DNA of 64,000 nucleotides from Candidatus Nomurabacteria bacterium (GCA_025361085.1 JANYAX010000036.1:7208-71207); one strand, 5' to 3'. Shown: positions 31,865 through 60,855, numbered from the stretch's first letter. Notes: generated by a model not told the origin, from the sequence alone. Numbers and translations are program-made.

Positions 31865-32893
31865 ATGGATAAAAAATTACGGGTTGCGGTGAATGGTTTT
31901 GGGAGAATCGGTCGGGCATTTTTGAAAATCGCTTGGGAAAGAGATGATATTGAAATAGTCGCAGTTAATGATTTGGGCTCTATAGAGAGCTTGGCATATT
32001 TGCTTCGTCACGACACTGTTTACAGAAACTTGAATCACAAAGTAGAAACAAAAGAAGGAGCTCTTGTTATTGATAGCAAAGAAGTTAAATTCATTTCCGA
32101 GAAAGATACAACCAAGTTGCCTTGGAAAGATTTAAATATTGACGTGGTTGTTGAATCGACAGGTCTCTTTACTTCATTTGATAAAGCAAAATTCCACATT
32201 GATTGCGGAGCTAAAAAGGTTGTTATATCTGCTCCTTCTAAGGGGGCCGAAAGCACAGTTCACGGCGAAACAATATTGCTCGGCATCAATGAAGAAAAGT
32301 TTGGCACTTGTGATATCACTTCAAACGCATCATGTACGACAAATGCTGCGAGCCCACTTATCGCTATTTTGCATGAATCAATCGGCATAGAGAAAGCAAT
32401 TCTAAACACTGTTCATGGGTACACAGCGACTCAAGCCCTCGTAGACGGCCCAAGCAAGAAAGACCTTCGTGAGGGTCGTGCTGCAGCCCAAAACATCATT
32501 CCAAGCTCAACTGGCGCCGCTATCGCCGTTACAGAAGCCTTTCCAGTCTTAAAAGGACTTTTCGATGGTATCTCTATTCGCGTTCCAGTCCCTGCTGGCT
32601 CGATTGTAGATATTACTTTCATCGCCAAAAGAGAAACCACCAAAGAAGAAGTAAATGAAATTTTGAAAAAAGCATCGCAAGATGCACGTTGGAACAAATT
32701 ATTTACTGTCACTACCGATAATCTAGTTTCGTCTGACATTCTCGGTGAATCACACCCATGCATAGCCGACCTTGAAATGACTCGCGTCGTTGGTGGCAAC
32801 CTCGTCAAAGTTCTCGGCTGGTATGACAATGAGATGGGGTATACAGCGACCCTCGTCGAACATGTAATCAAAACGGGGAGAACAATAATATAA
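31865..32893 (+). CDS. gap: Glyceraldehyde-3-phosphate dehydrogenase; last approximately 25 codons appear phage-supplied (see prophage)
   Basis: 342 aa; NGFGRIGR Rossmann motif, ASCTTN catalytic Cys, C-terminal WYDNEMGY. Confidence 0.9.
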   Translation: MDKKLRVAVNGFGRIGRAFLKIAWERDDIEIVAVNDLGSIESLAYLLRHDTVYRNLNHKVETKEGALVIDSKEVKFISEKDTTKLPWKDLNIDVVVESTGLFTSFDKAKFHIDCGAKKVVISAPSKGAESTVHGETILLGINEEKFGTCDITSNASCTTNAASPLIAILHESIGIEKAILNTVHGYTATQALVDGPSKKDLREGRAAAQNIIPSSTGAAIAVTEAFPVLKGLFDGISIRVPVPAGSIVDITFIAKRETTKEEVNEILKKASQDARWNKLFTVTTDNLVSSDILGESHPCIADLEMTRVVGGNLVKVLGWYDNEMGYTATLVEHVIKTGRTII

Positions 32894-32919
32894 AAATAGT
32901 TTTCTAGTAATTAGAAAAA

Positions 32920-32948
32920 GCTCTGCTAAATATAGCAGGGCTTTTTTT
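32920..32948 (+). terminator. Terminator hairpin GCTCTGCT-aaatat-AGCAGGGC plus T7 after gap
   Basis: 8-bp stem (one G-U) followed by U-tract. Confidence 0.55.
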
Positions 32949-33101
32949 ATGGCCTGCTCGTCAATCAAACAGGTCGAATTATTAGAAACTAATTAAAGAG
33001 AAATAACATGTTAAAAGAAATTATAACTACTCTCGGAATTAGCAATGTGATCATAACCATCGCACTTTTAGGAATCATATTCTTTCTAGCTGCTAACTGG
33101 T

Positions 33102-33479
33102 TTGTTTACTTCATCGCTAGGTCTTGGAGCAAGGGAATCATGGCAGGTAAAAACTCTTACTAATTTTATGCTCACAAGAGAAAAGTTAGATGGATGGTTC
33201 AATGATAGAAACAAAATCAGTTTAAAAATTGATTTAAAAAGCAAAGTTGAATGTGACCATATGTGTTCCGGAAATTGTAGACGAGTTGGTTGCAATTGTG
33301 AATGCGGAGAATGGCACAAAGAAAGTGATGTTTGTGAGATGTGCGGAGGTACCGGAGAAGTCAGCTGTGACGAAAGAGACAGGGACGGAAACTGGGAACG
33401 AGGTACAGGAACACAAATGTGCGAATGCAGACTTGATAACGAAATAGATATGAGCGGTGCTAGTGAGGGGGATAGATAA
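33102..33479 (+). CDS. Cys-rich small protein with DnaJ-like CxxCGGTG zinc-finger motif (start uncertain)
   Basis: 12 Cys in about 60 aa; first prophage ORF after attL; a 51-aa 2-TM ORF (33008..33163) lies just upstream. Confidence 0.3.
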   Translation: MFTSSLGLGARESWQVKTLTNFMLTREKLDGWFNDRNKISLKIDLKSKVECDHMCSGNCRRVGCNCECGEWHKESDVCEMCGGTGEVSCDERDRDGNWERGTGTQMCECRLDNEIDMSGASEGDR

Positions 33480-33577
33480 AATTATTCGTCGAAAAATAAT
33501 TAATTAATAGACTTACGCCCATACACAGCACCTCATTTGCTCTGAATAAGAGCTACCACTCGTAAGTCGGTAAAGGG

Positions 33578-34138
33578 ATGAGGTGTGTTGCATGGGGAAC
33601 TAAATGTATGACAAAAATTATAAAGAAAAAAGAGAAAGGGATCAGTAGACACTGGAAAAACTTTCTAGATAAAGATTACTTAGGTTCTCACAATTTAGAA
33701 ATTGGAGAAGAACTACTCGTGACAATCGCAAAGTTTGAGGGAGAAGAAGAGGTTAGAAACACAAAAGGAGGAACAAGTGCAAAGCAGGTTGTTTATTTTA
33801 AAGAAGAGGTCCCAAAAATGATAATGAACATTACAAACGGCAACACAATTGCATCTTTGTATGGTTCACATCCGGATAAATGGATTGGAAAGCAAATACA
33901 GATTTACAGTACACAGGTACCATTCGGTAAAAAACAAGTTGATGCTCTTAGAGTGAGAGATGTGATTCCAAAAATTAACGTCAACGCAGATGCTCACATC
34001 ACAGTGCTTGAAGCAGCGACAACAATTGATGAACTAAAAGAAGCTTTCAAATCTCTTCCGGTATCAGCACAGAAGAATGCTGATGTAGTCGCAAGAAAGG
34101 ATGCTCTAAAAATAAAATTAACAACTAACACTCAATAA
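33578..34138 (+). CDS. Hypothetical phage early protein (candidate single-strand annealing partner of YqaJ exonuclease)
   Basis: 186 aa directly upstream of and 2 nt from YqaJ-like gene; no motif recognised, function guessed from position only. Confidence 0.3.
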   Translation: MRCVAWGTKCMTKIIKKKEKGISRHWKNFLDKDYLGSHNLEIGEELLVTIAKFEGEEEVRNTKGGTSAKQVVYFKEEVPKMIMNITNGNTIASLYGSHPDKWIGKQIQIYSTQVPFGKKQVDALRVRDVIPKINVNADAHITVLEAATTIDELKEAFKSLPVSAQKNADVVARKDALKIKLTTNTQ

Positions 34139-34140
34139 TC

Positions 34141-34887
34141 ATGAAAATAATTAAAGGACTAGAACAAGGGACACAAGAATGGTTAGAATCTCGCAGATGT
34201 ATGGTAACAGGTACAAAAATGGACAGTGTTATGGGTACACCTCTAGATCAATTAATGCTTATTTGTGAATTAATTGCAGAAGAAGCAACAGAGCAGACAA
34301 AAGCTTTCAAATCTACACCAGAAATGGAGAGAGGAACAGCTGAGGAAGTTTTCGCTAGAAAACATTTTGAGCAGTTAACAGACAAGAAAGTGACTCAACT
34401 AGGATTCTGTATCTCAGATGAATTCAAGTATCTAGGTATCTCTGGCGATGGATGGATTAAAAACAAAAAAGGAGTTTACGAAGAAGCATTCGAGAACAAA
34501 TCTCCAGATAGTAAAAATGCTATTTTCTATCAACTCGCAGATAAAATACCTGCACAAGAATTAGGACTTGGAACATGGTCCAAACCTACAAAAACAGAGC
34601 CAGAGCCAGTCTTTAAAGAGTCTGCTAAAGCTCCATTCTTAGGCATACCCGCTCAATACAAGTGGCAAGTAGTAACTTACTTCATCGTGAACACAGATCT
34701 AAAGACTTTATACTTCTCAGTTTATGATGCTCGTTTCATCGATGACGAAACTAAAATGCACATCATTAAAGTTGAACGCAGTAATCCATTAATGCAGGAT
34801 GCGATCGCAGAAGCAATAGCAGAATTAATCGTCTTTCGTAAGAAGTGGCTCAAGTATAAAGACGCAGTATTAACAACTAATTTCTAA
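34141..34887 (+). CDS. YqaJ-like viral recombinase-family exonuclease (lambda Exo-like, PD-(D/E)XK)
   Basis: 248 aa; N-terminal QGTQEWLESRRCMVTGTKMDSVMG matches the YqaJ signature (QGS.eW...R.G..TaS). Confidence 0.65.
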   Translation: MKIIKGLEQGTQEWLESRRCMVTGTKMDSVMGTPLDQLMLICELIAEEATEQTKAFKSTPEMERGTAEEVFARKHFEQLTDKKVTQLGFCISDEFKYLGISGDGWIKNKKGVYEEAFENKSPDSKNAIFYQLADKIPAQELGLGTWSKPTKTEPEPVFKESAKAPFLGIPAQYKWQVVTYFIVNTDLKTLYFSVYDARFIDDETKMHIIKVERSNPLMQDAIAEAIAELIVFRKKWLKYKDAVLTTNF

Positions 34888-34896
34888 TTATTATTT

Positions 34897-35211
34897 ATGG
34901 CTAACGAAAAAATCTTTGCTGATGGTATGCACTTCCAAAAAAGAGATGGTGCTCCTACCTTTGTGGTAGGGCAAGTCTCTTTCAAAGTACCGGAAGTTAT
35001 ACCGTTCTTAAACAAGCATCAGAATAATGCCGGATACGTCAATGTAGACATCAAAATAAGCCAAGGTGGCAAGTATTACATGGAATTAAACACATACAAG
35101 CCTACTAATAATGTAGTTAAGCAAGAAGAGAGAAATCAAAGTGAATTAAATAACCTAGATACGATCGAGTATCCGGAGGAACAAATTAACCCAGAGGATA
35201 TTCCTTTTTAA
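34897..35211 (+). CDS. ssb: Short single-stranded DNA-binding protein (OB fold) with acidic C-terminal DIPF tip
   Basis: 104 aa; C-terminus EEQINPEDIPF mirrors the SSB DDDIPF protein-interaction tail. Confidence 0.5.
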   Translation: MANEKIFADGMHFQKRDGAPTFVVGQVSFKVPEVIPFLNKHQNNAGYVNVDIKISQGGKYYMELNTYKPTNNVVKQEERNQSELNNLDTIEYPEEQINPEDIPF

Positions 35212-35214
35212 TCT

Positions 35215-35919
35215 ATGGCTAACCAATGGTTTAAATTTTATGGCGGAGAATATTTGTCGGATCCAAAGATCCTGCAACTTACCGCTCAAGAACGTAGCTG
35301 TTGGGTTACCCTTTTGTGTCTCGCAAATCAGAGTGAAAATGGAGTGGTTAAGTTTTTATCAGAGAAGCAGTTACTTGCATTATCTGGTATCACAGAGCCA
35401 CTCCATAACATTCTGGAAAAATTCAAAGATTTAGAGATGATACGGATTTGTAACGGAGTTGTAACGATAAAGAATTGGGAAAAGAGACAGATGTCTGAAT
35501 CATATTCTAGGGTAAAGAATTTTAGGAAACGCCAGAGTAACGCCAATGATAACGATAGAAGAGAAGAGAAGAGAATAGAAGAGAATAAGAAAGAGATAGA
35601 GTTACCTATTTGGATAAATAAAAATGCATGGAATGCATGGGTGCAGTATAGGAAAGAAAAAAAGAAAACACTCACACCAACATCTATCAAATTGCAATTA
35701 AAGTTTTTAGAAGAGAATCAGAAAGACCACGCACAGATCATCAAAAATTCAATAACGAACGGATGGACCGGATTATTTGCCTTAAAAGATGAATCAAAAG
35801 GCAACAAAAGAACTCCTCCACGATTAACAGAGCCAAATACAAGTAAGGAGGATAATGACAGAAGAAATTTTTTGGATAAACAGTCGAGAGATTTAGCAAG
35901 TAACATGAGTGTGAATTAA
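35215..35919 (+). CDS. Phage replisome organizer-like / replication initiation protein
   Basis: 234 aa; N-terminal WFKFYGGEYLSDPKI...LLCLAN resembles phage replisome organiser N-terminal domain; basic C-terminal half. Confidence 0.45.
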   Translation: MANQWFKFYGGEYLSDPKILQLTAQERSCWVTLLCLANQSENGVVKFLSEKQLLALSGITEPLHNILEKFKDLEMIRICNGVVTIKNWEKRQMSESYSRVKNFRKRQSNANDNDRREEKRIEENKKEIELPIWINKNAWNAWVQYRKEKKKTLTPTSIKLQLKFLEENQKDHAQIIKNSITNGWTGLFALKDESKGNKRTPPRLTEPNTSKEDNDRRNFLDKQSRDLASNMSVN

Positions 35920-35922
35920 TTT

Positions 35923-36204
35923 ATGACAATGACAATGAATATTCAACAAACATCACTATTTGCCTATATCAACGAAGTAAAGCCAACACTAGGACATAGA
36001 CAAAAGGTTATATACGAAGCATTTGGAACTAGAGACAATTTTACAAACTCAGAGATGTCCGCTTATCTTAATTGGCCTATCAATACAGTAGTCCCAAGGG
36101 TAAATGAATTGCGAAAGGTTGGTCTAGTAAGACAATCGTGCATCAGAACGTGCAAAGTTACAGGTCGAAATGTTATCGCATGGGAAGTAGGAAAGATTGT
36201 ATGA
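35923..36204 (+). CDS. Winged-helix DNA-binding protein
   Basis: 93 aa; predicted HTH around SEMSAYLNWPINTVVPRVNELRKVGLV. Confidence 0.35.
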   Translation: MTMTMNIQQTSLFAYINEVKPTLGHRQKVIYEAFGTRDNFTNSEMSAYLNWPINTVVPRVNELRKVGLVRQSCIRTCKVTGRNVIAWEVGKIV

Positions 36205-36362
36205 AAAAGAAGATGAAACATTTTTGCAGGTTATATAAATACATCTGCGTAATGTGTGGAAAGGAAAGACACAAGAGACATTTTGTTCAAGAGGGAGAAA
36301 TTTGTACAAGTTGCGAGAGATTAAGAGTCAGCGATAATCAACAACAATTATTTAATTAAAAC

Positions 36363-36929
36363 ATGACAAGCTATCCTAACAAATCGAAATCAATCCCCAC
36401 TTACGAATCACAACACTTTAGTGGACTCGTAGTGGTCCATCCGGATACAGGCAAGAATGCTATCCGGATCAATGATGAGAAAGGATACTACTATTTTTTA
36501 AGTCAGAAATGCAAAGTTGGAGATACCATATCGGTTTACTACACGAACAAGAAGCCCAAGAGAACAGATTCGCAGAATAGATACCTACATGAATATCTAT
36601 CGCTTATATCACTCTCATGCGGTCATACAGTCGAAGAGTTAAAGATATGGATTAAAGGGAAGTTTCTATCGAAAGGAATTACAGAAGTATTTGGAGAGAA
36701 AGTAAGAAAGGTTAAAGGCACATCGGAGTTAAACATAAGTGAGTTTGCAGAATTGATTGAAAGGATTGAAGAGACAACAGAGATACCGGCACCAGAAACA
36801 GATTTATTTAAGATGCCTCATTCAAATCAAGAACACGAGAGACTCAAACGAGAGCAAATATCACATTATTCAAGTTTAAAACCAAGTCGAGCATTAACAC
36901 ATATTCAACACAAAGCAAATGTCAACTGA
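36363..36929 (+). CDS. Hypothetical phage early protein
   Basis: 188 aa; no family recognised; overlaps next gene (translational coupling). Confidence 0.35.
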   Translation: MTSYPNKSKSIPTYESQHFSGLVVVHPDTGKNAIRINDEKGYYYFLSQKCKVGDTISVYYTNKKPKRTDSQNRYLHEYLSLISLSCGHTVEELKIWIKGKFLSKGITEVFGEKVRKVKGTSELNISEFAELIERIEETTEIPAPETDLFKMPHSNQEHERLKREQISHYSSLKPSRALTHIQHKANVN

Positions 36930-37401
36930 TTCATACAAATTAAAGGGCGACATAGTTTCAAAAATCTACGACAGCATATGCGAGGGTCTCACAGATGTTC
37001 AGATAGCAAAGAAGTACAACATAGATCATTCAACTGTTTATTATTACAGGAAAAAAGAATTTAACCTCAGACATAATCTAGGTCCAGTCAGAGAAAAAAA
37101 GATTATAAAACCAGTATCTAAAAAAGTGCATCACATCTTTACTCCGACAATGCCTAAGCTTAAGAAAATACACGAGAGCAAGAGAGACCTAGAAGATCAT
37201 GAACCTAAGCACACAACAAAAACCTATATGGAAATACAGCAAGAAGAAGAGGATAAAAGATTGAGTCGTATATCGCATTGTGATCACGTTCATTGGATAC
37301 GAAGATGCTCAAGTTGCGGAGTGATACTTGAAAGCGATGCACAGGTCAATGAGCATTATTTTAATAAAGAAAAGCCACACGTTAAAGAGATAATTTTATG
37401 A
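36919..37401 (+). CDS. HTH protein with C-terminal Cys/His cluster (paralog of 37398..37751)
   Basis: 160 aa; N-terminal IYDSICEGLTDVQIAKKYNIDHSTVYYYRKK HTH (sigma-70 region 4 / homeodomain-like); CDHVHW..CSSCG. Confidence 0.4.
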   Translation: MSTDSYKLKGDIVSKIYDSICEGLTDVQIAKKYNIDHSTVYYYRKKEFNLRHNLGPVREKKIIKPVSKKVHHIFTPTMPKLKKIHESKRDLEDHEPKHTTKTYMEIQQEEEDKRLSRISHCDHVHWIRRCSSCGVILESDAQVNEHYFNKEKPHVKEIIL

Positions 37402-37751
37402 CAGAGCAGAGAACAATGAAAAATGTTCCTATGGAGGAAAGAAAAAAGATTCTCCTAGATTTACAAATAATGAAGTCTAGAGATGTGAGGGAAAAATATA
37501 ACATCACAAACAACACTCTCGGACATATCAGATTCTTTTATGGAAAATCAAACGCAGTTGCAGGAGGATACTTTCATAAAGATTTATTACAAGGTGCAGT
37601 GAATCCATTAGTTGAAAAAATAAGAGAGTTAAAACGCAAAGGTAGGAATTCATTAGAAGTAGCGAGAGAGTTGAGAGTCGACCTCGCTACGATAAATAAA
37701 AATTGGGTAGATGAAATTCAACATGAAGAAGAAATGCAAATGTGTATTTGA
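37398..37751 (+). CDS. HTH protein (paralog of 36919..37401)
   Basis: 117 aa; KKILLDLQIMKSRDVREKYNITNNTLGHIRFF parallels the upstream gene HTH; overlapping start/stop. Confidence 0.4.
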   Translation: MTEQRTMKNVPMEERKKILLDLQIMKSRDVREKYNITNNTLGHIRFFYGKSNAVAGGYFHKDLLQGAVNPLVEKIRELKRKGRNSLEVARELRVDLATINKNWVDEIQHEEEMQMCI

Positions 37752-37863
37752 GAATGGAAAGCTTTTGATGAGATGTGCCGAGTGTAGAAAAGAATTTAAT
37801 AAGCCGAAGTCTTGTCCGACTTGTCATGCTGATTTACCACCTAACCATCCTTTGAGGAAATAA
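37723..37863 (+). CDS. 46-aa C4 zinc-ribbon protein (not in ORF track)
   Basis: MKKKCKCVFENGKLLMRCAECRKEFNKPKSCPTCHADLPPNHPLRK read from sequence; overlaps end of previous gene. Confidence 0.3.
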   Translation: MKKKCKCVFENGKLLMRCAECRKEFNKPKSCPTCHADLPPNHPLRK

Positions 37864-37869
37864 AAAGTC

Positions 37870-38100
37870 ATGAAATTAGAAATAACATTTTACGCCGACA
37901 CATTCAGACATACTGAAATAGAGATAGACGATATTATTGACAAACAACTTCCACTATGTAGCTGCAATCTTATAAGCATGGGAGATCACTACTGCCAAAG
38001 AGGAAAAATGATACAAAACTGGTTGGCAGAAAAAATGCATGAACAATTTTATTATACAGGGAAAATTATGTTAATAACTGGTAAAAAAATAAACATATGA
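37870..38100 (+). CDS. Hypothetical phage protein
   Basis: 76 aa ORF in tightly packed + strand array. Confidence 0.3.
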   Translation: MKLEITFYADTFRHTEIEIDDIIDKQLPLCSCNLISMGDHYCQRGKMIQNWLAEKMHEQFYYTGKIMLITGKKINI

Positions 38101-38297
38101 CCAACAAAACAAAAAGACAAATGATTGAGGAAACAAATCAATTCTTGCGTGATAGGTCTTGGGATTTTAGAGTCAGCAGCTTATCCGGTGCAATACGAGT
38201 AAAGAGAACATTGTCGTTTAAGTTGTGGGCGTTAAGGAAAGCATGGGATGAATTAATGGTCGTGATTATAAACGCATTTAAGAATCTAAAAAAATGA
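38097..38297 (+). CDS. Hypothetical phage protein
   Basis: 66 aa, overlapping starts/stops with neighbours. Confidence 0.3.
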   Translation: MTNKTKRQMIEETNQFLRDRSWDFRVSSLSGAIRVKRTLSFKLWALRKAWDELMVVIINAFKNLKK

Positions 38298-38719
38298 CAA
38301 GACTAGAAATCATATTTGAGTTAGCAAAGTATTGTCCATCAGTGATCTACCAAAAGATACTCCACTGGCCGACAGAAGAATTGAATCTACTCCTAGAAAT
38401 ATATAAAAACGATTCAAGAAATCTAGAGACATTACTAAATATATTTAAGAGGTTAGATAAGGTCTTTGAAAAAATAGAAAAAGAAACACCAAAAGAGTTT
38501 GAACTATTTGAAATATCGTTGGTGCCAGTAGACAAAACAAGTGGCTACAAAATGGACTTATGGAGTTATTTATCAGAATTTTTTGGAGGCACATCTGTAT
38601 CAATCCCCAAGCACTGCAAACTTTGTGGAATAGAGAGAAAAGGTACTTTTATAACTGGCTATTACTTCGATTGTGAATGGATGCATAACATTGATGAATT
38701 AATAAAATCATGCAAGTAA
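38294..38719 (+). CDS. Hypothetical phage protein with C-terminal Cys/His cluster
   Basis: 141 aa; HCKLCG..CEWMH. Confidence 0.3.
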   Translation: MTRLEIIFELAKYCPSVIYQKILHWPTEELNLLLEIYKNDSRNLETLLNIFKRLDKVFEKIEKETPKEFELFEISLVPVDKTSGYKMDLWSYLSEFFGGTSVSIPKHCKLCGIERKGTFITGYYFDCEWMHNIDELIKSCK

Positions 38720-39105
38720 TTAATTTCACAGTCTCCGGCAATCAAGAAGATCCAAAAGGAAACCCTCTCGGCTACCACAGGACCACACAGAAAGCGAAAT
38801 GGGCACCATCACATCAACGATATGAGAAATGGAAAGGCCACGTCATACAAGCATTCAATCGCACCGGATACAGAGATAATAAAAATCTAAATGTAAAACC
38901 TATCGCAATATCGAAAGAACATCCGGCCAGAGTAGACATAGACATCGAATACGCAAACGAGATACGGCCAGATAATGACAATGTTCTAAAGGGGGTATTA
39001 GATGCATTGTTTGTGAATGATAAATTCGTTATGGCAGGAAGTTTCAAATCATTAATAGCACCCGATAGAGTCGGTCGGGTTAAGGTAAAAGTGACACTTT
39101 ATTAA
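38710..39105 (+). CDS. rusA: RusA-like Holliday junction resolvase
   Basis: 131 aa; RPDNDNVLKGVLDALFVN matches the RusA catalytic D-x-DN..K..DAL block. Confidence 0.55.
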   Translation: MQVINFTVSGNQEDPKGNPLGYHRTTQKAKWAPSHQRYEKWKGHVIQAFNRTGYRDNKNLNVKPIAISKEHPARVDIDIEYANEIRPDNDNVLKGVLDALFVNDKFVMAGSFKSLIAPDRVGRVKVKVTLY

Positions 39106-39394
39106 GATGGAAGAAATGGAATTGATTAATGCTTATTGTTTCGGATTGATAAAAAGAGCAAAAGAAACAGAAGCACAAAAAATGACAATCACGCAGGAAA
39201 ATGTGAAGTATCTAGATGAGGAATTAGGAGACTGGAAAATCACAGTTGAAAAAATAAATAATTAATAATAACCGAGGATCATCTCTACCAACCAAACCGA
39301 TACCACTCCGCAAGGAGAGTTATAAAGTTACCGCTTGATTTGTGCCATTATTTCGACCAATGGCAGGGGGACCAAGCAGAAAGGACATCGGTGA

Positions 39395-39800: not shown

Positions 39801-40454
39801 ATGGCAAAATACTCAGATGAAAAAAGAATAGAACACAAGGAATTAGTCAAAGACGCTCTGGTCCAAAAACCCAGAGCTTCCTTGCGTGAACTTTCTATAC
39901 TGATTGATAAAAATGTCGGCCAGAAATTTGACCCTCATTACATTTTAAAAATTGTCTCTGAGGTAAGAGATGAGAGACGAAAGCGATATTCAGATGATCC
40001 AGAAGTGCAGGAAAGAATCGCAGAGATGGAGGACAAGATGAGAAGATTGCAAGAAGAGATGTGGAAAATTGTTCTTGATGAATCGGTTTACTTGACTGGT
40101 TCAGAAATAGGACATCCAAAGACATCGAACTCATCGAAGATTAAAGCTGCACTCGCTATTATAAAATCTGAAAAAGATTTACTCGAAGCGCAGATGGATG
40201 CAGGAGTCTTTGAAAGAAAACTGGGAACGATTGATGTTGATGCAGATGCCGGAGAATATCAACCAATCTTAAATGCAATGTTTAATCTTGGAATGATTAA
40301 AGACAATGTGCCGAGCGCGAAATATGTTGAAGCAAAAGAAGTGAAAACAAAACAAATCAATGGACCAACTACTACAAAAAAACAATCCAATACTTCAAAA
40401 GGCAGTGATGGAAAGAAACTTCCGTCGAAATCTCGTAAAGGAGGGAGGGCTTAA
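39801..40454 (+). CDS. Putative terminase small subunit (HTH N-terminus)
   Basis: 217 aa directly upstream of and overlapping terminase large subunit; assignment mainly positional. Confidence 0.4.
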   Translation: MAKYSDEKRIEHKELVKDALVQKPRASLRELSILIDKNVGQKFDPHYILKIVSEVRDERRKRYSDDPEVQERIAEMEDKMRRLQEEMWKIVLDESVYLTGSEIGHPKTSNSSKIKAALAIIKSEKDLLEAQMDAGVFERKLGTIDVDADAGEYQPILNAMFNLGMIKDNVPSAKYVEAKEVKTKQINGPTTTKKQSNTSKGSDGKKLPSKSRKGGRA

Positions 40455-41793: not shown

Positions 41794-41796
41794 AAT

Positions 41797-41988
41797 ATGC
41801 TACCTATCAACCATCTAAGCCCACAGTGGCAAAAATTAATAAGGGAAATTGTAGGAGCTGCACCAAAGCTAGATTTTGCAGACATTGTCATCAAAGTGCA
41901 AAATAAACAACCGGCAATTACAGAGTACACAATCAAACGAAAGCCAGAGAATATCGATGCTCTCACAGTGACAGGATTGTTTGATTAA
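41797..41988 (+). CDS. Hypothetical small phage protein
   Basis: 63 aa ORF, 4 nt after terL. Confidence 0.3.
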   Translation: MLPINHLSPQWQKLIREIVGAAPKLDFADIVIKVQNKQPAITEYTIKRKPENIDALTVTGLFD

Positions 41989-42100
41989 TCTGTGGATGGT
42001 TTGTGTTGATGGTGGAAAGCAAATATACTTATATTATAAATTTTAATATTACTCGCCTGAGCGAACAACGCAGGGCCATACTTCAATCGAAAGATGAAAA

Positions 42101-44311: not shown

Positions 44312-44336
44312 AAATAAAAATAATAAACAAAATCAA

Positions 44337-45512: not shown

Positions 45513-45521
45513 TTTAAACCA

Positions 45522-47613: not shown

Positions 47614-47616
47614 AAA

Positions 47617-47985: not shown

Positions 47986-47989
47986 ATAT

Positions 47990-48430: not shown

Positions 48431-48638
48431 ATATTTATGATAGAAAAATCAACAAATAAATCAATGGGCGATAAAAAAGAACTTAAAACAAAAGAGGAAT
48501 ATCACTTCGCAGGTGGAACAGAATACAAACCAATCACTATCGAAGCAGAGAGCAAGGAAGAAGCAGAAAAAATTTACAAAGAAAAAAGAGAAAAAGTCGC
48601 TTAATAAAATTATTAATAATTAAATTTAAAAAAATAAC

Positions 48639-49625: not shown

Positions 49626-49629
49626 TTTT

Positions 49630-49929
49630 ATGGAAAGACCAACAATAAATTTTTCTCTTCCTTTTACAAAAAAGGAAATCATATGCAAAGAATGGCTAAC
49701 AGGTAGAGAGTATGAGAATACTCAAGAGCCATTTTATCAAAATTATAAAACTGGCCAAGAAAATAGGATAGATGTAAAAGGACTAACTCACAAGATGTTG
49801 GAATCTTACATCGTATCTATCGATGGAAAGACGGAAAATATTGTCGATACGATTATAGATCTACCATTCCCAGATTATGATTTCATCATTCAAAAGATAA
49901 ACGAGATTAAAAAAAAAGAATTGATATAG
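49630..49929 (+). CDS. Tail assembly chaperone (G-like); -1 frameshift at A9 run 49903..49911 predicted to extend into 49934..50063 (GT-like product)
   Basis: 99 aa ORF ending just past an A9 slippery run; the -1 frame continues for about 48 more codons to 50063, immediately before tape measure. Confidence 0.5.
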   Translation: MERPTINFSLPFTKKEIICKEWLTGREYENTQEPFYQNYKTGQENRIDVKGLTHKMLESYIVSIDGKTENIVDTIIDLPFPDYDFIIQKINEIKKKELI

Positions 49930-50075
49930 ATGACATGACGGTTGTGTGCATAAAAATGGGATGGGATTATTTCACTTTTATGGCACAACCTACATGGTTC
50001 GTTGACCAAATCATCCTCTACTATCAAAAAGAGTACGAAGAAATTAAAAAAGCAAATAGATAAACATATATCATC

Positions 50076-52211: not shown

Positions 52212-53626
52212 TCCTTACAATTAACGGCGTAGACAAAACAGCTTACGTCAAAACAAATTCCATAAACAAAACAGACAACCTAAATTCACAGGTTGATAAT
52301 TTAACTTTTCAGATAGATAACTTTGAGTCGACAGTATACAAACCATCTCTTAACGATGAAGTCATCATCACAAATGGAGCAATAAGAATATTCGGAGGGG
52401 TCATTGTAAAAATAGATGAAAAAATCAGTGCATCTCGTGTCATTAATTACACAATCACTTGCAATGACTATTCTCAATATCTTAAAAAAAGCTTGGTAAC
52501 CAAGCGTTTTACTGGTACAACCTTGGTCGCATTGATTCAATACCTTGTCACAAACTACACGACTGGATTCACTTGTGTAAATATAGCCGGAGATATTACA
52601 GTCACATCCTTTGCTTTTAATCGATTGAATGTCGCTGACTGTTTACAAAAACTCGCAGATGCAATCTCATATGTTTGGTATGTGGACTATAACAAAGACA
52701 TTCACTTCTTCCCACAAAATACAGAATCAGCACCATTTAATTTAAGCGACACATCAAACAATTTTATAACTGATTCACTAACAATAAGTGAAGATCTAAC
52801 ACAAATAAGAAATTCAATTCTAGTGCAAGGTGGGAATGCAATTAGTGCAGCACCAATCACAGAATATATCATCACTGATGGACTAAACAAATCATATCCT
52901 CTTGTGAATAAATTTTCTGATATACCTACAATTATTTTGAATGGAGTCACTCAGGTAGTGGGAGCAGAAAACGTCGAACAAGATTCCGGTCACGATGTGA
53001 TGTGGAACTATACATCAAAATCAATCCGTTTTATTTCATTACCTGCAGGGAGTCTCCAAGTTTCAATTGCAGGATTATATGAATATCCAATTTTGGTCAA
53101 TATTAAAAATCCTTTATCTGTCGGACAATTTGGTAAATATGAATTTGCTATCACTGACAAATCAATAACATCTTCAAATGAGGCCATCGAAAGAGCAAAA
53201 GCAGAACTCAAATCATACCAAAATCAGATATATGACGGCTCATTCAGAACATACACAGATGGACTCCGTTCGGGGATGGTTATAAATATTAACTCTACAA
53301 AAAGAAATAGAAATATAAATGTTTTGATCCAAGCTGTTACTACAACAATGAGAGATCCAACCGGAACAAAGTTTGAATACGCAATAAAATACGCAACATT
53401 AAAATCAATAGGAATCATTCAATACTTGCAGGACCAATTAAGAGATAGAGAAATAATCGCAGATGCAAGTCAGTCACTACTCAACTACATCGAACTTCCA
53501 TCAGATAGTCTCAGTGTAAGCGATAACATGGCCACACCAACAAAAACGAGTGGACCATACAAATGGTCAAATGACGCAGGGTCGACAGTGAACAAATTAA
53601 AGTGGGGGTTGGGAACATGGGCATAA
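52208..53626 (+). CDS. Distal tail / baseplate protein
   Basis: 472 aa overlapping tape measure stop; positional. Confidence 0.45.
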   Translation: MILTINGVDKTAYVKTNSINKTDNLNSQVDNLTFQIDNFESTVYKPSLNDEVIITNGAIRIFGGVIVKIDEKISASRVINYTITCNDYSQYLKKSLVTKRFTGTTLVALIQYLVTNYTTGFTCVNIAGDITVTSFAFNRLNVADCLQKLADAISYVWYVDYNKDIHFFPQNTESAPFNLSDTSNNFITDSLTISEDLTQIRNSILVQGGNAISAAPITEYIITDGLNKSYPLVNKFSDIPTIILNGVTQVVGAENVEQDSGHDVMWNYTSKSIRFISLPAGSLQVSIAGLYEYPILVNIKNPLSVGQFGKYEFAITDKSITSSNEAIERAKAELKSYQNQIYDGSFRTYTDGLRSGMVININSTKRNRNINVLIQAVTTTMRDPTGTKFEYAIKYATLKSIGIIQYLQDQLRDREIIADASQSLLNYIELPSDSLSVSDNMATPTKTSGPYKWSNDAGSTVNKLKWGLGTWA

Positions 53627-54111
53627 AAAATATGAATAAACAAATTAAAAAAGAAATAGGGAGAGACACGATGGACTTAAAAGGAGTCCTTACAATTACC
53701 AAGTTTAAAGATGGCAAAAAGATAAGTGAAGAAAGTCATCATAATTTAGTGATGAGTGGAGCCACCGGATACGGTAAAAATGTGATTCTTAGAAAACTAT
53801 CAAATGATAATACTTATTCTCAATACATTACGACAATGTCACTTGGAGATGGAACAGCAGCACCAACTGAGGCAGATACTGCACTTGGAAATTCACTTGT
53901 TGCAAATATCCCAATCACTACATGGCAAATATCCGGTAATTCTTTAGTTATGAGTATATTCTGTGCCAGTGCAAATTTAGCCAATGGAACTTATAAAGAA
54001 GCGGGATTCTTTACAAGTGATTCAAGAATTTTCTCGCACATTCTCTTTACTGGTAACTATGTCAAGGCTACTGGGGAGGATACATTATTCACTTATACCT
54101 TAAATATTTAA
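53602..54111 (+). CDS. Tail-associated protein
   Basis: 169 aa. Confidence 0.3.
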   Translation: MGVGNMGIKNMNKQIKKEIGRDTMDLKGVLTITKFKDGKKISEESHHNLVMSGATGYGKNVILRKLSNDNTYSQYITTMSLGDGTAAPTEADTALGNSLVANIPITTWQISGNSLVMSIFCASANLANGTYKEAGFFTSDSRIFSHILFTGNYVKATGEDTLFTYTLNI

Positions 54112-54112
54112 T

Positions 54113-55093
54113 ATGATACAACAAGGACAAGATGCAAAGGCATCGGACTTCATAAATAAAACAACAAAAGATGCAACACCTACAAATAATGTGGGCAAGG
54201 TTCCATTACTTGAGAGTAATGGTTTACTTGATGGAGATTTTTTACCAAACAAAGTAATAAAAAAAGTTTATTCTTTTTCATCAGTTGGAGATTCAACAAC
54301 ATCAATCGATGTGACTGTTCCAGTCGCAGGAACTACTCGTTACACATGGAATGGAACTGGAACAAACCCAAACATCAATGCTTCTACATTCCCAGTTGGA
54401 GCGCAAGTTTCTATATACACACCAAACTTCGCAAACCTCGGTGATAATTTTGTCGGAGTTGTGACAGCAAGTGGAGCAAACTATTTTGAAGTAGCAAACG
54501 GAAGTGGAGTTGCAGAAGCAACAAATACTCTTTCGGACGGATATTTGAAAGTCAATAAAAACGTAATTTGGACTAAAACAGCCGGATTGAAGGCTTGTAT
54601 TGTAAAACTAGTAGGAGGTGGAGCAGGTGGAGCTAGATCAAATACTACCTCAAAAGCGTTTGGCGGAGGTGGAGGGTCATATGCTGAAAAAACATTTTTA
54701 GCGTCAGATTTAAATGCAACTGAAACGATTTCTGTTGGTGCTGGAGGGAAAAGAGGTAACTATTCACCAGTAAGTGATGCAGGTGCTGGTGCAACAAGTA
54801 CATTCAAAAGTATATCGGCTGGAGGTGGTAATTTTGTTGTATATTCGTCGGGTGTACCGGGAACTGGAGGGGTTGCAACTGGTGGAGATATAAATATAAA
54901 TGGCGGTACGTCTTTTCCTGCTAAAGGAACCTCAACTGCAGGTGGAAACTCTTTATTTGGCTTCGGTGCACAAAGTAGGTCAGAAAATGCCGGAAATTAT
55001 GGAGGGGGTGGAGCAGGTAGTGATAATGCTTCAACTGGTGACCAAGGATCACACGGAGGAGATGGAGTAATTATTATTGAAGAATTTTATTAA
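54113..55093 (+). CDS. Glycine-rich tail fiber / receptor-binding protein
   Basis: 326 aa with repeated GGGAGG / GGGGGS / GAGGG runs. Confidence 0.45.
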   Translation: MIQQGQDAKASDFINKTTKDATPTNNVGKVPLLESNGLLDGDFLPNKVIKKVYSFSSVGDSTTSIDVTVPVAGTTRYTWNGTGTNPNINASTFPVGAQVSIYTPNFANLGDNFVGVVTASGANYFEVANGSGVAEATNTLSDGYLKVNKNVIWTKTAGLKACIVKLVGGGAGGARSNTTSKAFGGGGGSYAEKTFLASDLNATETISVGAGGKRGNYSPVSDAGAGATSTFKSISAGGGNFVVYSSGVPGTGGVATGGDININGGTSFPAKGTSTAGGNSLFGFGAQSRSENAGNYGGGGAGSDNASTGDQGSHGGDGVIIIEEFY

Positions 55094-55107
55094 AAAACCA
55101 ATTAATT

Positions 55108-55392
55108 ATGGAGAATCAACAACAAAAAGATCATGACCTACTAATTAAAATAAGCACAGTGCTTGATGGGTTAGTAAATGATGTCAAAGATATTAAAACC
55201 AACACAGTTGGACGTATTGAGGATCTAGAAGTTTCAAGGGCCACAAAAGATGAATTAAAAAATGTTAGTGACAAAGTTGAAAATATAGAAAAAAAACAAG
55301 TTTCAAACGACACATATCTTAAACTTGCTGTCGCTCTTGGAGCATTAATTTTGAGTGTCTTAGTCTGGCACTTAACAGGTTACAAAATATAA
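55108..55392 (+). CDS. XhlA-like coiled-coil membrane protein (lysis-associated)
   Basis: 94 aa; coiled coil followed by single C-terminal TM, as in the PBSX XhlA family; precedes lysin. Confidence 0.4.
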   Translation: MENQQQKDHDLLIKISTVLDGLVNDVKDIKTNTVGRIEDLEVSRATKDELKNVSDKVENIEKKQVSNDTYLKLAVALGALILSVLVWHLTGYKI

Positions 55393-55399
55393 AAAATGT

Positions 55400-56551
55400 A
55401 TGGATACACAATATAAATTAGGAGCAAAAAAAGACCATGACGATTTGAGAAATATTCCTCTTGTTGCGGTACAAGCACCACTTCCAAAAGGATCTATCCC
55501 ATCGAAGTATATGACCGATGTTTCAATGATTCCGATACTCAATCAGAATCAAATCGGTGCATGTGTCGGACACGCAAAAGCAACTGTTCTATGTTATTTA
55601 AACTGGAAAGAGACAGGAAACATCATTTATCTTTCTCCTCGATTCTTGTATGCACTCGCAAAGGCTATCGACAATAATCCAAACGAGGGAACATATCCGG
55701 CTATTGTGGCCAAGATTGCAAAAGATATGGGATGTCCTACAACAAAGACAGTACCAAATGATACGCTTTTATCTCACAAGGACTACATAAATATCACAGT
55801 CACAGATGCAATCAAAGAGGATGCATACCCATTCAGGACTGGAGGATACGCAACTGTGAATGGAGGGATAGCAGACGCTCTTAAAAATGCCATTGTGCAA
55901 AATGGTGTTATTGATGTGACTATCTCAGTTGGAAATTATACAAGTCCAATGAGAAAAGGTACTGATGGACTTCATAGAATCGTCCTTTATGGTTTTGATG
56001 GAGATACTTTTTACTTCATCAATAGTTGGGGAGAATCTTGGGGAGATAAAGGAAAAGGATATTTTTATTTCAAGCAGCAAGAAGTAACAGATGCACTTGC
56101 AACAGTAGATATTCCAAACGAAATATTAAAAAAAGTGCAATCACTTCCTACTGCTGTGCTCACTCGCCAACCATCTACAAAGACAGAGACACTGGGTGAA
56201 ATGGTGGCCACATACAACGGACTATCAAAGACATTTAAAACACTCGAAAGACCAGACTTAGGAAACAAGCCAAACATCTCATGTATTCCAAAAGGAAAAT
56301 ATGTCTGCAAGAGAATCTTCTCATTAAAGTTTTTGGGCTATGTCTATCAATTACAGAACGTCACTGGACGCTCTGGCATTTATATTCATGCCGGTAACTA
56401 TTACAGAGATGTACAAGGATGCATCATCTTGGGTAGTGCTTTCTCTGACATCGATAGAGACGGAAACTTGGATGTGATCAATTCAAAGATCTCATGCAAA
56501 GCGTTGTTTGATTTTTTCAACAATCAATCATTCACGCTCATTATTAAATAG
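55400..56551 (+). CDS. Putative endolysin: papain-like (peptidase C1-like) domain fused to a YkuD (L,D-transpeptidase-fold) C-terminal domain
   Basis: NQIGACVGHA (Cys region), GLHRIVLYGFD (His) and INSWGESWGDKGKGYF (NSWG..WG..GY) papain hallmarks; C-terminal IYIHAGNYYRDVQGCIILG resembles the YkuD H..G....GCI motif. Confidence 0.55.
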   Translation: MDTQYKLGAKKDHDDLRNIPLVAVQAPLPKGSIPSKYMTDVSMIPILNQNQIGACVGHAKATVLCYLNWKETGNIIYLSPRFLYALAKAIDNNPNEGTYPAIVAKIAKDMGCPTTKTVPNDTLLSHKDYINITVTDAIKEDAYPFRTGGYATVNGGIADALKNAIVQNGVIDVTISVGNYTSPMRKGTDGLHRIVLYGFDGDTFYFINSWGESWGDKGKGYFYFKQQEVTDALATVDIPNEILKKVQSLPTAVLTRQPSTKTETLGEMVATYNGLSKTFKTLERPDLGNKPNISCIPKGKYVCKRIFSLKFLGYVYQLQNVTGRSGIYIHAGNYYRDVQGCIILGSAFSDIDRDGNLDVINSKISCKALFDFFNNQSFTLIIK

Positions 56552-56584
56552 GTTCGATTATCAATTTAATACATATAAAAATAT

Positions 56585-57664: not shown

Positions 57665-57760
57665 AAGGGGACTTCGGTCTCCTTTTTCTTATGCACTAGA
57701 CAAAATAACAATATTGCTTTATAATTTCGCTATTAATATATTCAACTAATATTTCAATTT

Positions 57761-58225: not shown

Positions 58226-58247
58226 TTTATCATTAATAATTACATAT

Positions 58248-58802: not shown

Positions 58803-59012
58803 CAACCACCGAAGAGATTAAGGCACATTTTTACAAATGTGCTTTTTCTTTACCTGTTCATAACTTTTATTGACATATTGTCAAGTTAGTTGTATAACTC
58901 CCTTGTGAGTCATTAACAACAACTTAATTAAAGCCATTGTTCCGAAAGGAATCGTCTGTGAAAACAGATTGATGCTACCAATGTCTTGTGAAAGTATTTA
59001 TATAATCCTTTT

Positions 59013-60077
59013 TTGGATGTATACTATAACTATCTCTGTCAAGTACAGAGTAGCAATTCCGCAAGGAGTTACGCACAAGTCCATCGAGTAGCATCGATGG
59101 ATTTCGTGTTTATGAAATTTGACGATGCAATAGAAAAGTTTACGAATTGGAGACAATTCAAAGTGTGCGGAGAAACGGTAAAAAGGTACGACAAAGTGCT
59201 ACGCATTTTTTGTTTGTATCTACATAATCCGGATATAGAAAAAATAACGGTCGACCAAGTATTAAAATATCTAGGAGAGATGCAAACACTTGGATGGAAA
59301 AAGAATGGATTAAATATTGTTTGTATTGGGTTGAGAAAATTCTTTGAGTTTTATGAGATGCAAGGCTATAAAGTTATCAAAGCTGAATTAGTCCCAATAC
59401 TTAAAAAAGAATTTAAACTTCCGAGAATTGCGACGGAGGATGGATATGATGCTCTGCTTGAACAATTTCCTGCAGACTCAAACGATCCGCACCACATCCG
59501 CAATCGTGCCATCGCTATGCTCTTGTGGGATACAGGAGCCAGAAATGGAGAGATATTATCGCTCGATGTCGATGATCTAAACTTAGAAGAAAGGAAAGCA
59601 ATAATCAAAACAGAGAAGTCGCGAGGACGTAGACCAATTCGCGAAATATTCTGGCAAGAAAAAACAAACAAGGCTCTCAAAAATTGGATTGAGAAAAGAA
59701 AATATTTGATGAACATTATGAAGTTTCAAGACCAGAACGCTCTATTTATTTCAATTGCAACGTGTAATAAAAGTGTAAGGGGTGGAAGATTAAAAGTTTG
59801 TGGACTAGCAGAGATTTTGAGGACTGCATCGAATAGGGCAGGGATTCCAACTTTGAATGCTCACTCAATGAGACATTTTATGGGAAGAAGTATTATTGAA
59901 CAGGGAGGCTCAAACTCCGATGTTTCAAATATTCTTGGTCACTCATCCATGGACTCATCATGGATATATACGATGATGGCCGGACCGCAATTGCAAAAAC
60001 GATGGTCACATTTTAAAGAGGTAGCCGTCAAAGCTGTCACCGTAAAAACAGGGCGGTTCGGGAAGATGAGAATATAG
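59013..60077 (+). CDS. int: Tyrosine recombinase / phage integrase
   Basis: 354 aa; catalytic R..HxxR..Y signature (ARNGE, HSMRHF, LGHSS..WIYT); adjacent to attR; true start may be an internal Met near 59097. Confidence 0.85.
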   Translation: MDVYYNYLCQVQSSNSARSYAQVHRVASMDFVFMKFDDAIEKFTNWRQFKVCGETVKRYDKVLRIFCLYLHNPDIEKITVDQVLKYLGEMQTLGWKKNGLNIVCIGLRKFFEFYEMQGYKVIKAELVPILKKEFKLPRIATEDGYDALLEQFPADSNDPHHIRNRAIAMLLWDTGARNGEILSLDVDDLNLEERKAIIKTEKSRGRRPIREIFWQEKTNKALKNWIEKRKYLMNIMKFQDQNALFISIATCNKSVRGGRLKVCGLAEILRTASNRAGIPTLNAHSMRHFMGRSIIEQGGSNSDVSNILGHSSMDSSWIYTMMAGPQLQKRWSHFKEVAVKAVTVKTGRFGKMRI

Positions 60078-60123
60078 TCGTTGATAAATTGACTTTATCG
60101 TTTACATATGTAAACATAGATAT

Positions 60124-60594
60124 ATGACTAAAAGAGAACAATTAGAGGAGAAAGTTAAAGAAATGACCAAAACACATGGCCGTAATGACTATAAAATTAT
60201 TGAATGTTTAGCATGTGGAAATGAATTTGTTGGTGGTACTACTGGCAAAAGATGTGATGACTGTAGTTTAGAAAACTCAAAAAAGAGAATGACCGGATTA
60301 AGTAAGTCAAAAATTGCAATCAAAAATAATGCTGTTGAAAGGAAGTGTTTCTTTTGCTCAAAAACAGAAAATACTCAAATACACCACATAGATAAAGATA
60401 AATTGAATAATGACATAAGCAATTTATTAATATTATGTAAAGGGTGTCATCTAAAATTACATGGCAAAATATACAATCCTCTTTTAAAGAGAGTATTTGC
60501 AATTCTCACAGAAGAGAGATTTTCTTATGAAGAGATTGGGGAGATGTTCGGGACTACTAGACAAAACGTCTATAAGTTGTTAAAAACCAAGTAG
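60124..60594 (+). CDS. HNH endonuclease with N-terminal zinc ribbon and C-terminal sigma-70 region-4-like HTH
   Basis: 156 aa; CLACG..CDDC, HNH block CFFC..IHHIDKDKLNN..LCKGCHLKLH, C-terminal FSYEEIGEMFGTTRQNVYKLLK. Confidence 0.7.
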   Translation: MTKREQLEEKVKEMTKTHGRNDYKIIECLACGNEFVGGTTGKRCDDCSLENSKKRMTGLSKSKIAIKNNAVERKCFFCSKTENTQIHHIDKDKLNNDISNLLILCKGCHLKLHGKIYNPLLKRVFAILTEERFSYEEIGEMFGTTRQNVYKLLKTK

Positions 60595-60779
60595 TTTACA
60601 TTTGTAAAGTTATCCACAGGTTAAGGGGTTTACGTTTGTAATAGTAGAGTGTATAATGTTTAGAGTAGTTTGAAAGATGAATAAAAATATTTTGCTTGTC
60701 AGTAGAGAGTGTGAAAATATTCGCAACTTCTACCGACGAGCAAAGGCAGAGCAAGTTTTTATAAAAAAATATCCTTGCA

Positions 60780-60855
60780 TGGTATCGTAACGAAATGGGG
60801 TATACCTACACGCTCGTAGATCATGTAGTAAAAACAGGGAATAGTATAAAATAAA
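60780..60855 (+). pseudogene. gap: Displaced original 3' end of gap (25 codons, WYRNEMGYTYTLVDHVVKTGNSIK*), attR-side remnant
   Basis: About 75 percent identical at nt level and collinear with 32819..32893; no start codon or upstream coding context; rpiB begins 4 nt downstream. Confidence 0.6.

Follow-up and report, generated by a model that had tools for sequence, protein, structure and literature searches.

A siphovirus-type prophage in the 3′ end of the GAPDH gene of a Candidatus Nomurabacteria bacterium

Elements that integrate at the 3′ ends of tRNA and tmRNA genes use a conserved gene end as bacterial attachment site (attB), and the gene is regenerated by the 3′ part carried on the attachment site of the element (attP). 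Protein-coding genes also serve as attB, as for streptococcal and other Firmicutes prophages at gene ends and for the ‘active lysogeny’ elements at comK and mutL, with possible effects on operons. Lambdoid phage 21 is found at the 3′ end of icd. The same gene end is occupied in Escherichia coli K-12 by e14, which is reported to supply a homologous replacement 3′ end with the open reading frame (ORF) staying intact, to have an orphan C-terminal pseudogene (icdC, 163 bp) at its other end, and upon excision to leave a slightly different functional protein (PMC13626634, PMC6379469, both citing Hill et al. 1989); DLP12 at argU is an example of integration at a tRNA gene end (PMC6379469). Here, we describe a stretch of 64,000 nucleotides from a Candidatus Nomurabacteria bacterium (GCA_025361085.1, JANYAX010000036.1:7208-71207), referred to as the window, in which a temperate siphovirus-type phage has very probably integrated in the last codons of gap, the gene of glyceraldehyde-3-phosphate dehydrogenase (GAPDH), of a member of the Paceibacteria (Candidate Phyla Radiation, CPR; Patescibacteria), supplying the enzyme with a substitute ending.

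The locus resembles e14/icd in that the 3′ end of a central-metabolism gene was hit, a replacement end would be supplied and an orphan fragment is left. It differs in its target (gap), its CPR host, a shorter mimic of the gene end (~75 nt) and a greater divergence of the two ends, which are 73% identical with 6 of 16 tail residues changed, compared to two Asp-to-Glu changes in e14. In addition, relatives of the phage carry a conserved promoter and start codon before the mimic and a terminator behind it, and no deposited phage integrase shares more than 30% identity with that of the window. The conserved gene end as attB and its element-borne regeneration are shared with the elements at tRNA ends, but gap is protein-coding, and reading frame and stop codon must be kept. 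Unlike the target in active lysogeny, gap is not disrupted, and no switch-like inactivation is implied; a polar effect on rpiB and rpe is possible. The mechanism is thus already known from the e14/icd type, whereas the target gap, the host phylum and the sharing of this target by two integrase clades are new, as are the divergence between mimic and host tail in the window and the conserved attP architecture of promoter, mini-ORF and terminator. In the literature searched by full text, no attachment site is described for phages of CPR/Patescibacteria, the consulted papers on such phages being silent on integration sites, and none of the papers found connects gap with the attB of a phage.

Two copies of the gap 3′ end

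A preliminary description of the window had reported two collinear segments encoding a GAPDH C-terminus, and this was borne out. Copy 1 (32819-32893) and copy 2 (60780-60854) align without gaps at an offset of 27961 with 55 of 75 nt identical, compared to a chance maximum of 38/75 for the best match of the copy 1 75-mer elsewhere in the window on both strands. The copies translate to WYDNEMGYTATLVEHVIKTGRTII and WYRNEMGYTYTLVDHVVKTGNSIK, respectively. Copy 1 forms the end of an intact gap ORF of 342 aa, in which the Pfam domains Gp_dh_N and Gp_dh_C are both matched, and copy 2 is an orphan whose reading frame is closed by a stop five codons 5′ of its Trp codon. Homology extends from the Trp codon of the WYDNEMGY motif to 4 nt past the stop codon, and the copies lie in direct orientation, with the intact gap ORF at the left attachment site (attL) and the orphan fragment at the right one (attR). 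Alignment of the copies for a crossover core, as had been proposed, yielded an exact run of 11 nt, ATGGGGTATAC (32834-32844 and 60795-60805), which is the longest and the only shared run of at least 7 nt. The stop codon of copy 2 (60852-60854) is followed by 5 nt (AAAAC) and by the rpiB start at 60860; position and rpiB-rpe-tkt context of copy 2 are therefore as first described, with an end at 60854 instead of 60855 and a spacer of 5 instead of 4 nt.

The junctions were compared in four assemblies, the metagenome-assembled genome (MAG) GCA_043723505.1, to which the window was traced, and the Logan assemblies of SRR23617162, SRR23617163 and SRR23617164, and were base-identical at both ends of the element. 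As the prophage is split over two contigs in the NCBI MAG, host and phage contigs might have been joined through a short shared sequence to form an assembly chimera. This is barely conceivable, since gap, the prophage and rpiB are found with unchanged spacing on a single Logan contig of 35.7 kb (SRR23617163), no base differs at the junctions between the three runs and the MAG, and the same architecture occurs in unrelated samples.

Very probably, the tyrosine integrase encoded at the right end of the element recombined the 3′ end of host gap with an attP in which the last ~75 nt of gap are imitated, starting at the Trp codon of WYDNEMGY and extending slightly beyond the stop; strand exchange would have occurred in an overlap of ~8 nt, GGGTATAC. 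The resulting attL would consist of the body of host gap, 16 phage codons with their stop codon and an intrinsic terminator of the phage, and attR of the original 16 codons and stop beside rpiB, with the left, non-functional half of the phage mimic in front of them. The crossover is placed within GGGTATAC (32837-32844; Gly-Tyr-Thr codons; GGGTAYAC) because of the 11-nt core in the window, a sequence switch between the related loci L011 and L104, and a T/C mismatch to the left of the core in a related viral contig (both described below); the exact cleavage positions are inferred only. Inspection by eye revealed no convincing inverted core-type binding sites flanking GGGTATAC. The reconstructed junction sequences are TCAAAGTTCTCGGCTGGTATGACAATGAGATGGGGTATACCTACACGCTCGTAGATCATGTAGTAAAAACAGGGAATAGTATAAAATAAAAAACATG for attB and AAAATATCCTTGCATGGTATCGTAACGAAATGGGGTATACAGCGACCCTCGTCGAACATGTAATCAAAACGGGGAGAACAATAATATAAAAATAGTT for attP.

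To which side each tail belongs was judged from related genomes, the nearest of which are Paceibacteria/Paceibacterota MAGs, with GAPDH identities of at most 88% in the species-representative collection and at most 92% in the protein database. The order gap-rpiB-rpe-tkt, earlier taken as native, agrees with the position of rpiB downstream of gap in 39 of 45 Paceibacteria relatives, at a distance of 70 nt or less in 20 of the 39. The spacer is highly variable, even in the closest relatives, and often measures 1-4 nt, e.g., in L007 and L025, where the junctions resemble that of copy 2 and rpiB. When the 16 C-terminal residues were compared across the 120 nearest GAPDHs (83-92% identity), 95 tails were nearer to copy 2 and 12 to copy 1, with 13 ties; the copy 1 residues Ala2 (2/120) and Glu6 (7/120) are rare in this set, and Ile16 is also atypical. 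The left part of copy 2 (60780-60794) encodes WYRNE, in which Arg replaces an Asp that is invariant in all 162 tails read from relatives (42 of the 45 genome loci and the 120 nearest GAPDHs), as expected if attR to the left of the core is phage DNA that was never translated as GAPDH. Copy 2 thus begins with 15-26 nt of phage (P-arm) and not of host origin. Synteny, tail typicality and the non-host-like left part of copy 2 agree in identifying the copy 2 tail as the native tail of the host. The tail analysis and the pair L104/L011 (described below) support gap as host-derived up to the core, with its last 16 codons and stop codon being phage-derived. The phage would hence supply the tail, as previously proposed, but by the position of the core this amounts to the last 16 codons and not to ~25.

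In an alternative scenario, copy 1 (ending in TATLVEHVIKTGRTII*) is the native gap end, and the phage, carrying a gap-like fragment, integrated 3′ of an intact gap without encoding any part of GAPDH. E-type tails such as that of copy 1 are indeed native in some relatives, e.g., in L002 (no phage downstream), L003 and L012, and the tail of P0101 is identical to copy 1 at 14 of 16 residues. Glu versus Asp at tail position 6 was accordingly rejected as a marker of phage origin, as the E-type tail of L002 precedes dapF and not phage DNA, and the tail type alone is not diagnostic. However, the tight native junction to rpiB belongs to copy 2 and not to copy 1, the copy 2 tail fits the lineage better in most relatives, the homology of the copies begins inside gap at the Trp codon and not past the stop, and in the pair L104/L011 tail and terminator travel with the phage. 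We therefore regard a native copy 1 as very improbable and favor the phage-supplied ending.

Integrases and attachment sites of related phages

The integrase of the window (354 aa) matches PF00589 with E = 1.7e-24 (87 bits, cut-off 27.1) and PHROG 1 with E = 2.6e-31, and its N-terminal SAM-like domain scores just below the cut-off (22.2 vs. 22.3). R177, H284-x-x-R287, H310 and Y319 are invariant between this protein and the 52%-identical integrase of L091, the assignment of the catalytic Lys being ambiguous. When IMG/VR was scanned with the gap-tail motif as a pattern, one viral contig of 40.5 kb, UViG_3300014208_001117, carried it at both ends. Its left end holds a full gap (58% identical to that of the window), a terminator and phage DNA, and its right end an integrase 53% identical to that of the window, an orphan gap fragment and rpiB. 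The two copies are identical over ~58 nt except for one T/C mismatch located to the left of the core, and their homology starts at the same Trp codon. A scan of IMG/VR with the single integrase protein gave no matches; relatives were searched using the two-sequence alignment of the window and UViG integrases as query, which identified five viral and ~19 metagenomic relatives with 48-66% identity.

Two of the related loci represent the site with and without a host. In L104, from the middle of a 59.9-kb viral contig, the integrase gene is followed in order by the gap mimic, a terminator and early genes, among them one for a homologue of RusA; this corresponds to the attP form. L011, from a Paceibacteria genome (CAYOTK010000002.1), contains an intact gap followed by the tail of L104, the terminator and the early genes, and corresponds to the attL form. 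Both are 82.7% identical over 4.77 kb, and the switch from unrelated to near-identical sequence occurs at GGGTACAC in the tail. Along with the tyrosine integrase and the 11-nt core, this pair bears out the earlier proposal of site-specific integration into a protein-coding 3′ end. A replacement tail carried by the element in the unintegrated state is thus seen in the related phage L104, and for the phage of the window it is suggested by tail typicality. L116 shows the integrase side of an L104-like phage up to the fragment and then host DNA, which is the attR form.

The integrases fall into clades A (L103, L104, L112, L113, L116), B (the window, L107, L108, L110) and C (L114, L115, L117-L122). 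A gap mimic is located ~360-700 nt downstream of the integrase gene in nine of nine loci of clades A and B, and in none of five clade C loci, counting only the five with at least 880 nt of downstream sequence. These data support the view that target-site specificity is a property of the integrase lineage, with two clades sharing the gap target. The contigs of L107, L108, L110 and L113 end 20-150 nt past the mimic, as might happen if assemblies break at a point where the element is present both integrated and free. Clade C integrases are 70-99% identical within the clade, and the homology of their loci ends ~390 nt past the integrase gene at a block, GAAGATGGTGGTGTCATAGAGTTTA (~7225-7253 in L118, with equivalents in L115, L120 and L122), which is probably a different attachment core. 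tRNA genes as alternative target were rejected, as a scan of ten integrase loci, from clade C and from the unassigned loci with no detectable gap fragment, gave none. A 30.9-kb viral contig, L092 (IMGVR_UViG_3300025536_000189; first 3 kb read), starts inside a gap gene 73% identical to that of the window. A strong terminator lies downstream of this gene, whose ending is ...TLVEHVIKTGNTISH*, and L092 thus represents a probable third attL of the gap-tail kind.

Several loci indicate repeated use of the site. In L112 (4233-5401), four orphan gap tails are stacked between the integrase gene and rpiB, one of them frameshifted and two with their own promoter and start codon, which looks like a record of serial integrations at one site. 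L020 (5108-5393) and L028 (7021-7352) have an insertion of ~280-330 nt after gap, consisting of an ORF for a small membrane protein and an orphan gap tail, and no integrase gene was found near these insertions. They may be left-end remnants of deleted prophages, as the first phage ORF of the window also encodes a membrane protein of 51 aa. In L005, a frameshifted orphan tail has a left part resembling the P arm of the window. Present or past occupancy of the site is thereby seen in at least 4 of the 45 related genomes (L005, L011, L020, L028), in addition to the window. The insertions of L020 and L028, bracketed by gap tails and lacking an integrase, could also be taken to mean that the copies in the window arose by ordinary duplication or homologous recombination without an integrase and that the phage landed between them later. 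We consider this highly improbable: the mimic lies at a fixed distance from the integrase gene in all nine members of two clades, including an unintegrated phage genome, and the invariant Asp has been lost from the left part of 7 of 10 phage-side mimic copies, as expected of non-coding recombinase-site DNA. Integrase-mediated insertion remains our reading of the two copies.

The P arm of the window is unusual in that 703 nt separate the end of the integrase gene from attR, compared to ~360-420 nt between integrase gene and fragment in the clade B relatives. It contains a gene for an HNH endonuclease, which was absent from this position in the relatives checked, with no match in L102-L125 (tblastn); the sole tblastn match in related loci is weak and located upstream of the portal gene in L097. 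The HNH gene is therefore probably an insertion into the P arm. The C-terminus of its product (...EEIGEMFGTTRQNVYKLLKTK) is helix-turn-helix (HTH)-like in appearance. At the equivalent position between integrase gene and attR, clade A phages have a conserved HTH-like ORF of 79 aa (L104 7185-7424), possibly an excisionase or regulator.

Transcription signals around the attachment site

As first described, copy 1 is followed by a terminator and by a long series of plus-strand phage genes (~27.6 kb, compared to an initial estimate of ~27 kb). The predicted hairpin with its U-tract lies directly after the copy 1 stop codon, and a terminator follows all five of the phage-borne tails examined in relatives. 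With regard to host promoters, the pattern TGnTAnA[AC]T followed by an ATG 4-10 nt later occurs nine times in the window. Seven of these occurrences are the starts of long host ORFs (4942, 8733, 20543, 29329, 30406 and 62070 on the plus strand, 17262 on the minus strand), and none is located inside the prophage. The leaderless-type boxes of gatB, TGCTATACT, and tktN, TGCTAAAAT, are positioned 6 and 7 nt 5′ of the respective ATG (30406 and 62070), and no Shine-Dalgarno sequences were found in the host genes checked. This pattern suggests widespread leaderless or near-leaderless transcription in the host organism, and the native transcription units are probably gatB-gap-rpiB-rpe and tktN-tktC. 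Since tktN has its own leaderless-type promoter, tktN-tktC should not depend on gap transcription, and the phage terminator would cut off only rpiB and rpe. The initial proposal that a terminator separates gap from rpiB-rpe-tkt thus stands with respect to the predicted terminator but not with respect to tkt.

In nine of nine relatives, an outward-pointing, extended -10-like box lies 5-9 nt 5′ of an ATG that is in frame with the gap mimic. Eight of the boxes match TGnTAnAAT, and that of L107 has CG for TG; the background expectation is 0.023 per 120 nt. The in-frame mini-ORFs comprise 25-46 codons, e.g., MKRSKQLTWYSNELGYTYTLVNHVIAAGRLV*. Box and mini-ORF are found at 7560-7690 in L104 and 7438-7570 in L103, and also upstream of the mimics in L108, L110, L112, L113 and L116. 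Judged by its sequence, the P-arm box with its ATG is the host’s own leaderless promoter architecture. The canonical box with an in-frame mini-ORF is absent from the P arm of the window, as confirmed in the four assemblies. The nearest upstream ATG, at 60677, opens an ORF of 38 codons (60677-60793) that ends in the orphan fragment, one base out of the mimic frame. Dropping one A from an A7 run (60765-60771), which is present in all four assemblies, would yield a fused ORF of 59 codons. The only promoter-like site, an outward one at 60629-60657, is listed as a candidate, as the number of promoter-like sites in the P arm of the window does not exceed that in shuffled sequences. No plus-strand terminator is predicted between the HNH gene and rpiB, so that read-through from phage genes into rpiB is also possible. 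rpiB-rpe would now be transcribed from phage-side signals.

We tentatively propose, as a possibility that we rate slightly below an even chance, that attP is a three-part ‘operon patch’ of substitute tail, terminator and outward leaderless promoter with in-frame ATG. If so, the terminator would shield the early phage genes from gap transcription, and from the promoter both transcription and translation would start anew, running across the displaced tail and on into rpiB-rpe, its only productive target. In the free phage, the outward promoter would give rise to only a short dead-end transcript, as a terminator follows every phage-borne tail examined. The P-arm promoter may thus possibly compensate for the polarity on rpiB-rpe that is caused by the phage itself. 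Serial use of the site would then mean that the C-terminal helix of GAPDH evolves by phage-mediated replacement, which leaves stacked tails such as the four in L112.

Prophage content, excision and significance

The element measures 27,961 bp from core to core, and its credible ORFs (33008-60594) are all located on the plus strand (Table 1). It appears as a complete siphovirus-type genome with the tyrosine integrase gene at its right end beside the orphan fragment; the hallmarks of a complete tailed prophage, TerL, portal, HK97-type capsid with protease, tail tube and tape measure, are all present. The Peptidase_C1+DUF5675 protein may be a lysin. The closest deposited phages are remote in the capsid (at most 26% identity) as well as in the integrase, and the capsid is nearest (~25% identity) to those of Streptococcus and Staphylococcus siphophages. 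GC content was rejected as a prophage marker, as the prophage is not distinguishable from the host flanks. Elsewhere in the window, a stretch at ~7000-12500, possibly an acquired island, has a GC content of 25-30%, compared to 35-40% in the remainder. It carries genes for a SET-domain protein (8242-8706), an EamA transporter, a protein with an LPG_synthase_C domain and a histidine kinase (11023-12711). On the same MAG contig of the host, beyond the window and ~9 kb past rpiB, there is a gene for a Y1 transposase of the IS200/IS605 type (L081 19536-20210).

Table 1. Features of the window around the gap attachment site and in the prophage.
Feature	Coordinates	Strand	Basis
gatB, first gene of host unit gatB-gap-(rpiB-rpe)	30406..31860	+	Pfam GatB_N, GatB_Yqey
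gap, GAPDH 342 aa, putatively chimeric	31865..32893	+	Pfam; tail analysis; L011/L104 pair
attL (gap stretch homologous to orphan copy, 55/75 nt)	32819..32897	+	copy alignment
common core ATGGGGTATAC at attL	32834..32844	.	exact run, L011/L104 switch, four-way att alignment
putative phage-supplied GAPDH replacement tail ATLVEHVIKTGRTII*	32845..32893	+	atypical A2, E6, I16; analogy to L104 (attP)/L011 (attL)
predicted intrinsic terminator, phage P′ arm, bidirectional in form	32912..32949	+	-21.9 kcal/mol, z = -3.9, U-tract
early/recombination/replication module	33008..39265	+	PHROGs, precomputed Pfam
51-aa membrane ORF, first phage ORF	33008-33163	+	
YqaJ/RecE-like exonuclease	34141	+	PHROGs/Pfam
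replication organiser	35215	+	PHROGs/Pfam
NinB-like gene	36363	+	PHROGs/Pfam
RusA	38710	+	PHROGs/Pfam
packaging and head module	39801..46709	+	PHROGs, Pfam
possible small terminase	39801	+	position only
TerL	40360-41793	+	PHROG 1.8e-63
portal fused to Mu-F-like domain	42101-44311	+	PHROG 1.1e-111
protease/scaffold	44337-45512	+	PHROG protease/head 6e-23
major capsid protein, HK97-type	45522-46709	+	PHROG major capsid protein 1.1e-27
connector, tail and probable lysis genes	46948..56551	+	PHROGs, Pfam
adaptor	46948	+	
neck protein	47617	+	
tail tube	48639	+	tail match 1.4e-28 (Phage_tube_2)
tape measure protein	50076-52211	+	tape measure match 2.1e-07
distal tail proteins	52208, 53602	+	
fibre	54113	+	
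Peptidase_C1+DUF5675 protein	55400	+	PHROGs/Pfam
tyrosine integrase, 354 aa, clade B	59013..60077	+	Pfam Phage_integrase, PHROG 1, alignment
HNH endonuclease, between integrase gene and attR	60124..60594	+	Pfam, PHROGs
candidate outward promoter TTTACG-17-TATAAT (10/12)	60629..60657	+	weak; aimed at orphan tail and rpiB
attR, orphan gap fragment	60780..60854	+	P-arm mimic 60780-60794, core 60795-60805, host tail and stop 60806-60854
rpiB and rpe, putatively cut from gatB-gap promoter by prophage and terminator	60860..62024	+	Pfam; synteny
split transketolase tktN and tktC	62070..63930	+	Pfam; own promoter

In addition to the native E-type tails, several observations speak against a temperate phage integrated in the gap end. 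Exact protein look-ups of rpiB, gap, the integrase gene, the HNH gene and the first phage ORF, together with a homology search, yielded no empty attB, circle or attP contig of this phage or strain, and every contig with an exact match to one of these sequences represented the integrated form. Nor did the homology search identify a same-species GAPDH that ends in the native tail, its top match showing 92% identity. Uninterrupted gap-rpiB junctions, for which a search of related genomes had been proposed, do occur, but only in more distant relatives and not as an empty site of the same species; in the two closest relatives, gap and rpiB are separated by other genes, and orphan tails are absent. 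Among the prophage genes, PHROGs and Pfam revealed neither a repressor nor an excisionase. Finally, an identity of 73% between the copies is unusually low for attachment sites, and the argument for the crossover leans on the 11-nt core and on the relatives.

These findings may also be read as those of a grounded remnant that can no longer be excised or induced, its anatomy reflecting a past integration. The exclusive recovery of the integrated form in four assemblies, the lack of a recognised excisionase or repressor, the diverged attachment sites, and a P arm unlike that of all relatives, with the HNH gene inserted and the canonical promoter and in-frame mini-ORF missing or frameshifted, would be consistent with this. 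On the other hand, the recognisable structural, packaging and recombination ORFs are full-length and co-linear, the catalytic residues of the integrase are intact, the 11-nt core is identical at both ends, as required by a tyrosine recombinase, and minor excised forms rarely appear in assemblies. We thus consider a grounded remnant unlikely, although a good deal less so than the other alternatives, and favor a temperate phage that would still be able to excise from a gap gene whose chimeric product should be active.

The biology of CPR/Patescibacteria phages is almost wholly inferred from metagenomes. The result defines the gap tail with the core GGGTAYAC as an attB, together with the architecture of attP and a family of integrases in which at least two clades have conserved specificity. 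This offers a rule by which such phages can be assigned to hosts, a marker of past lysogeny in the form of orphan gap tails located between gap and rpiB, and, with integrase and attachment sites, a candidate pair for genetic tools in a phylum with few. A glycolytic enzyme of a minimal-genome organism would carry a phage-encoded C-terminal helix, and the conserved promoter and mini-ORF raise the idea that the polarity imposed on an operon by a temperate phage may be repaired by the phage itself.

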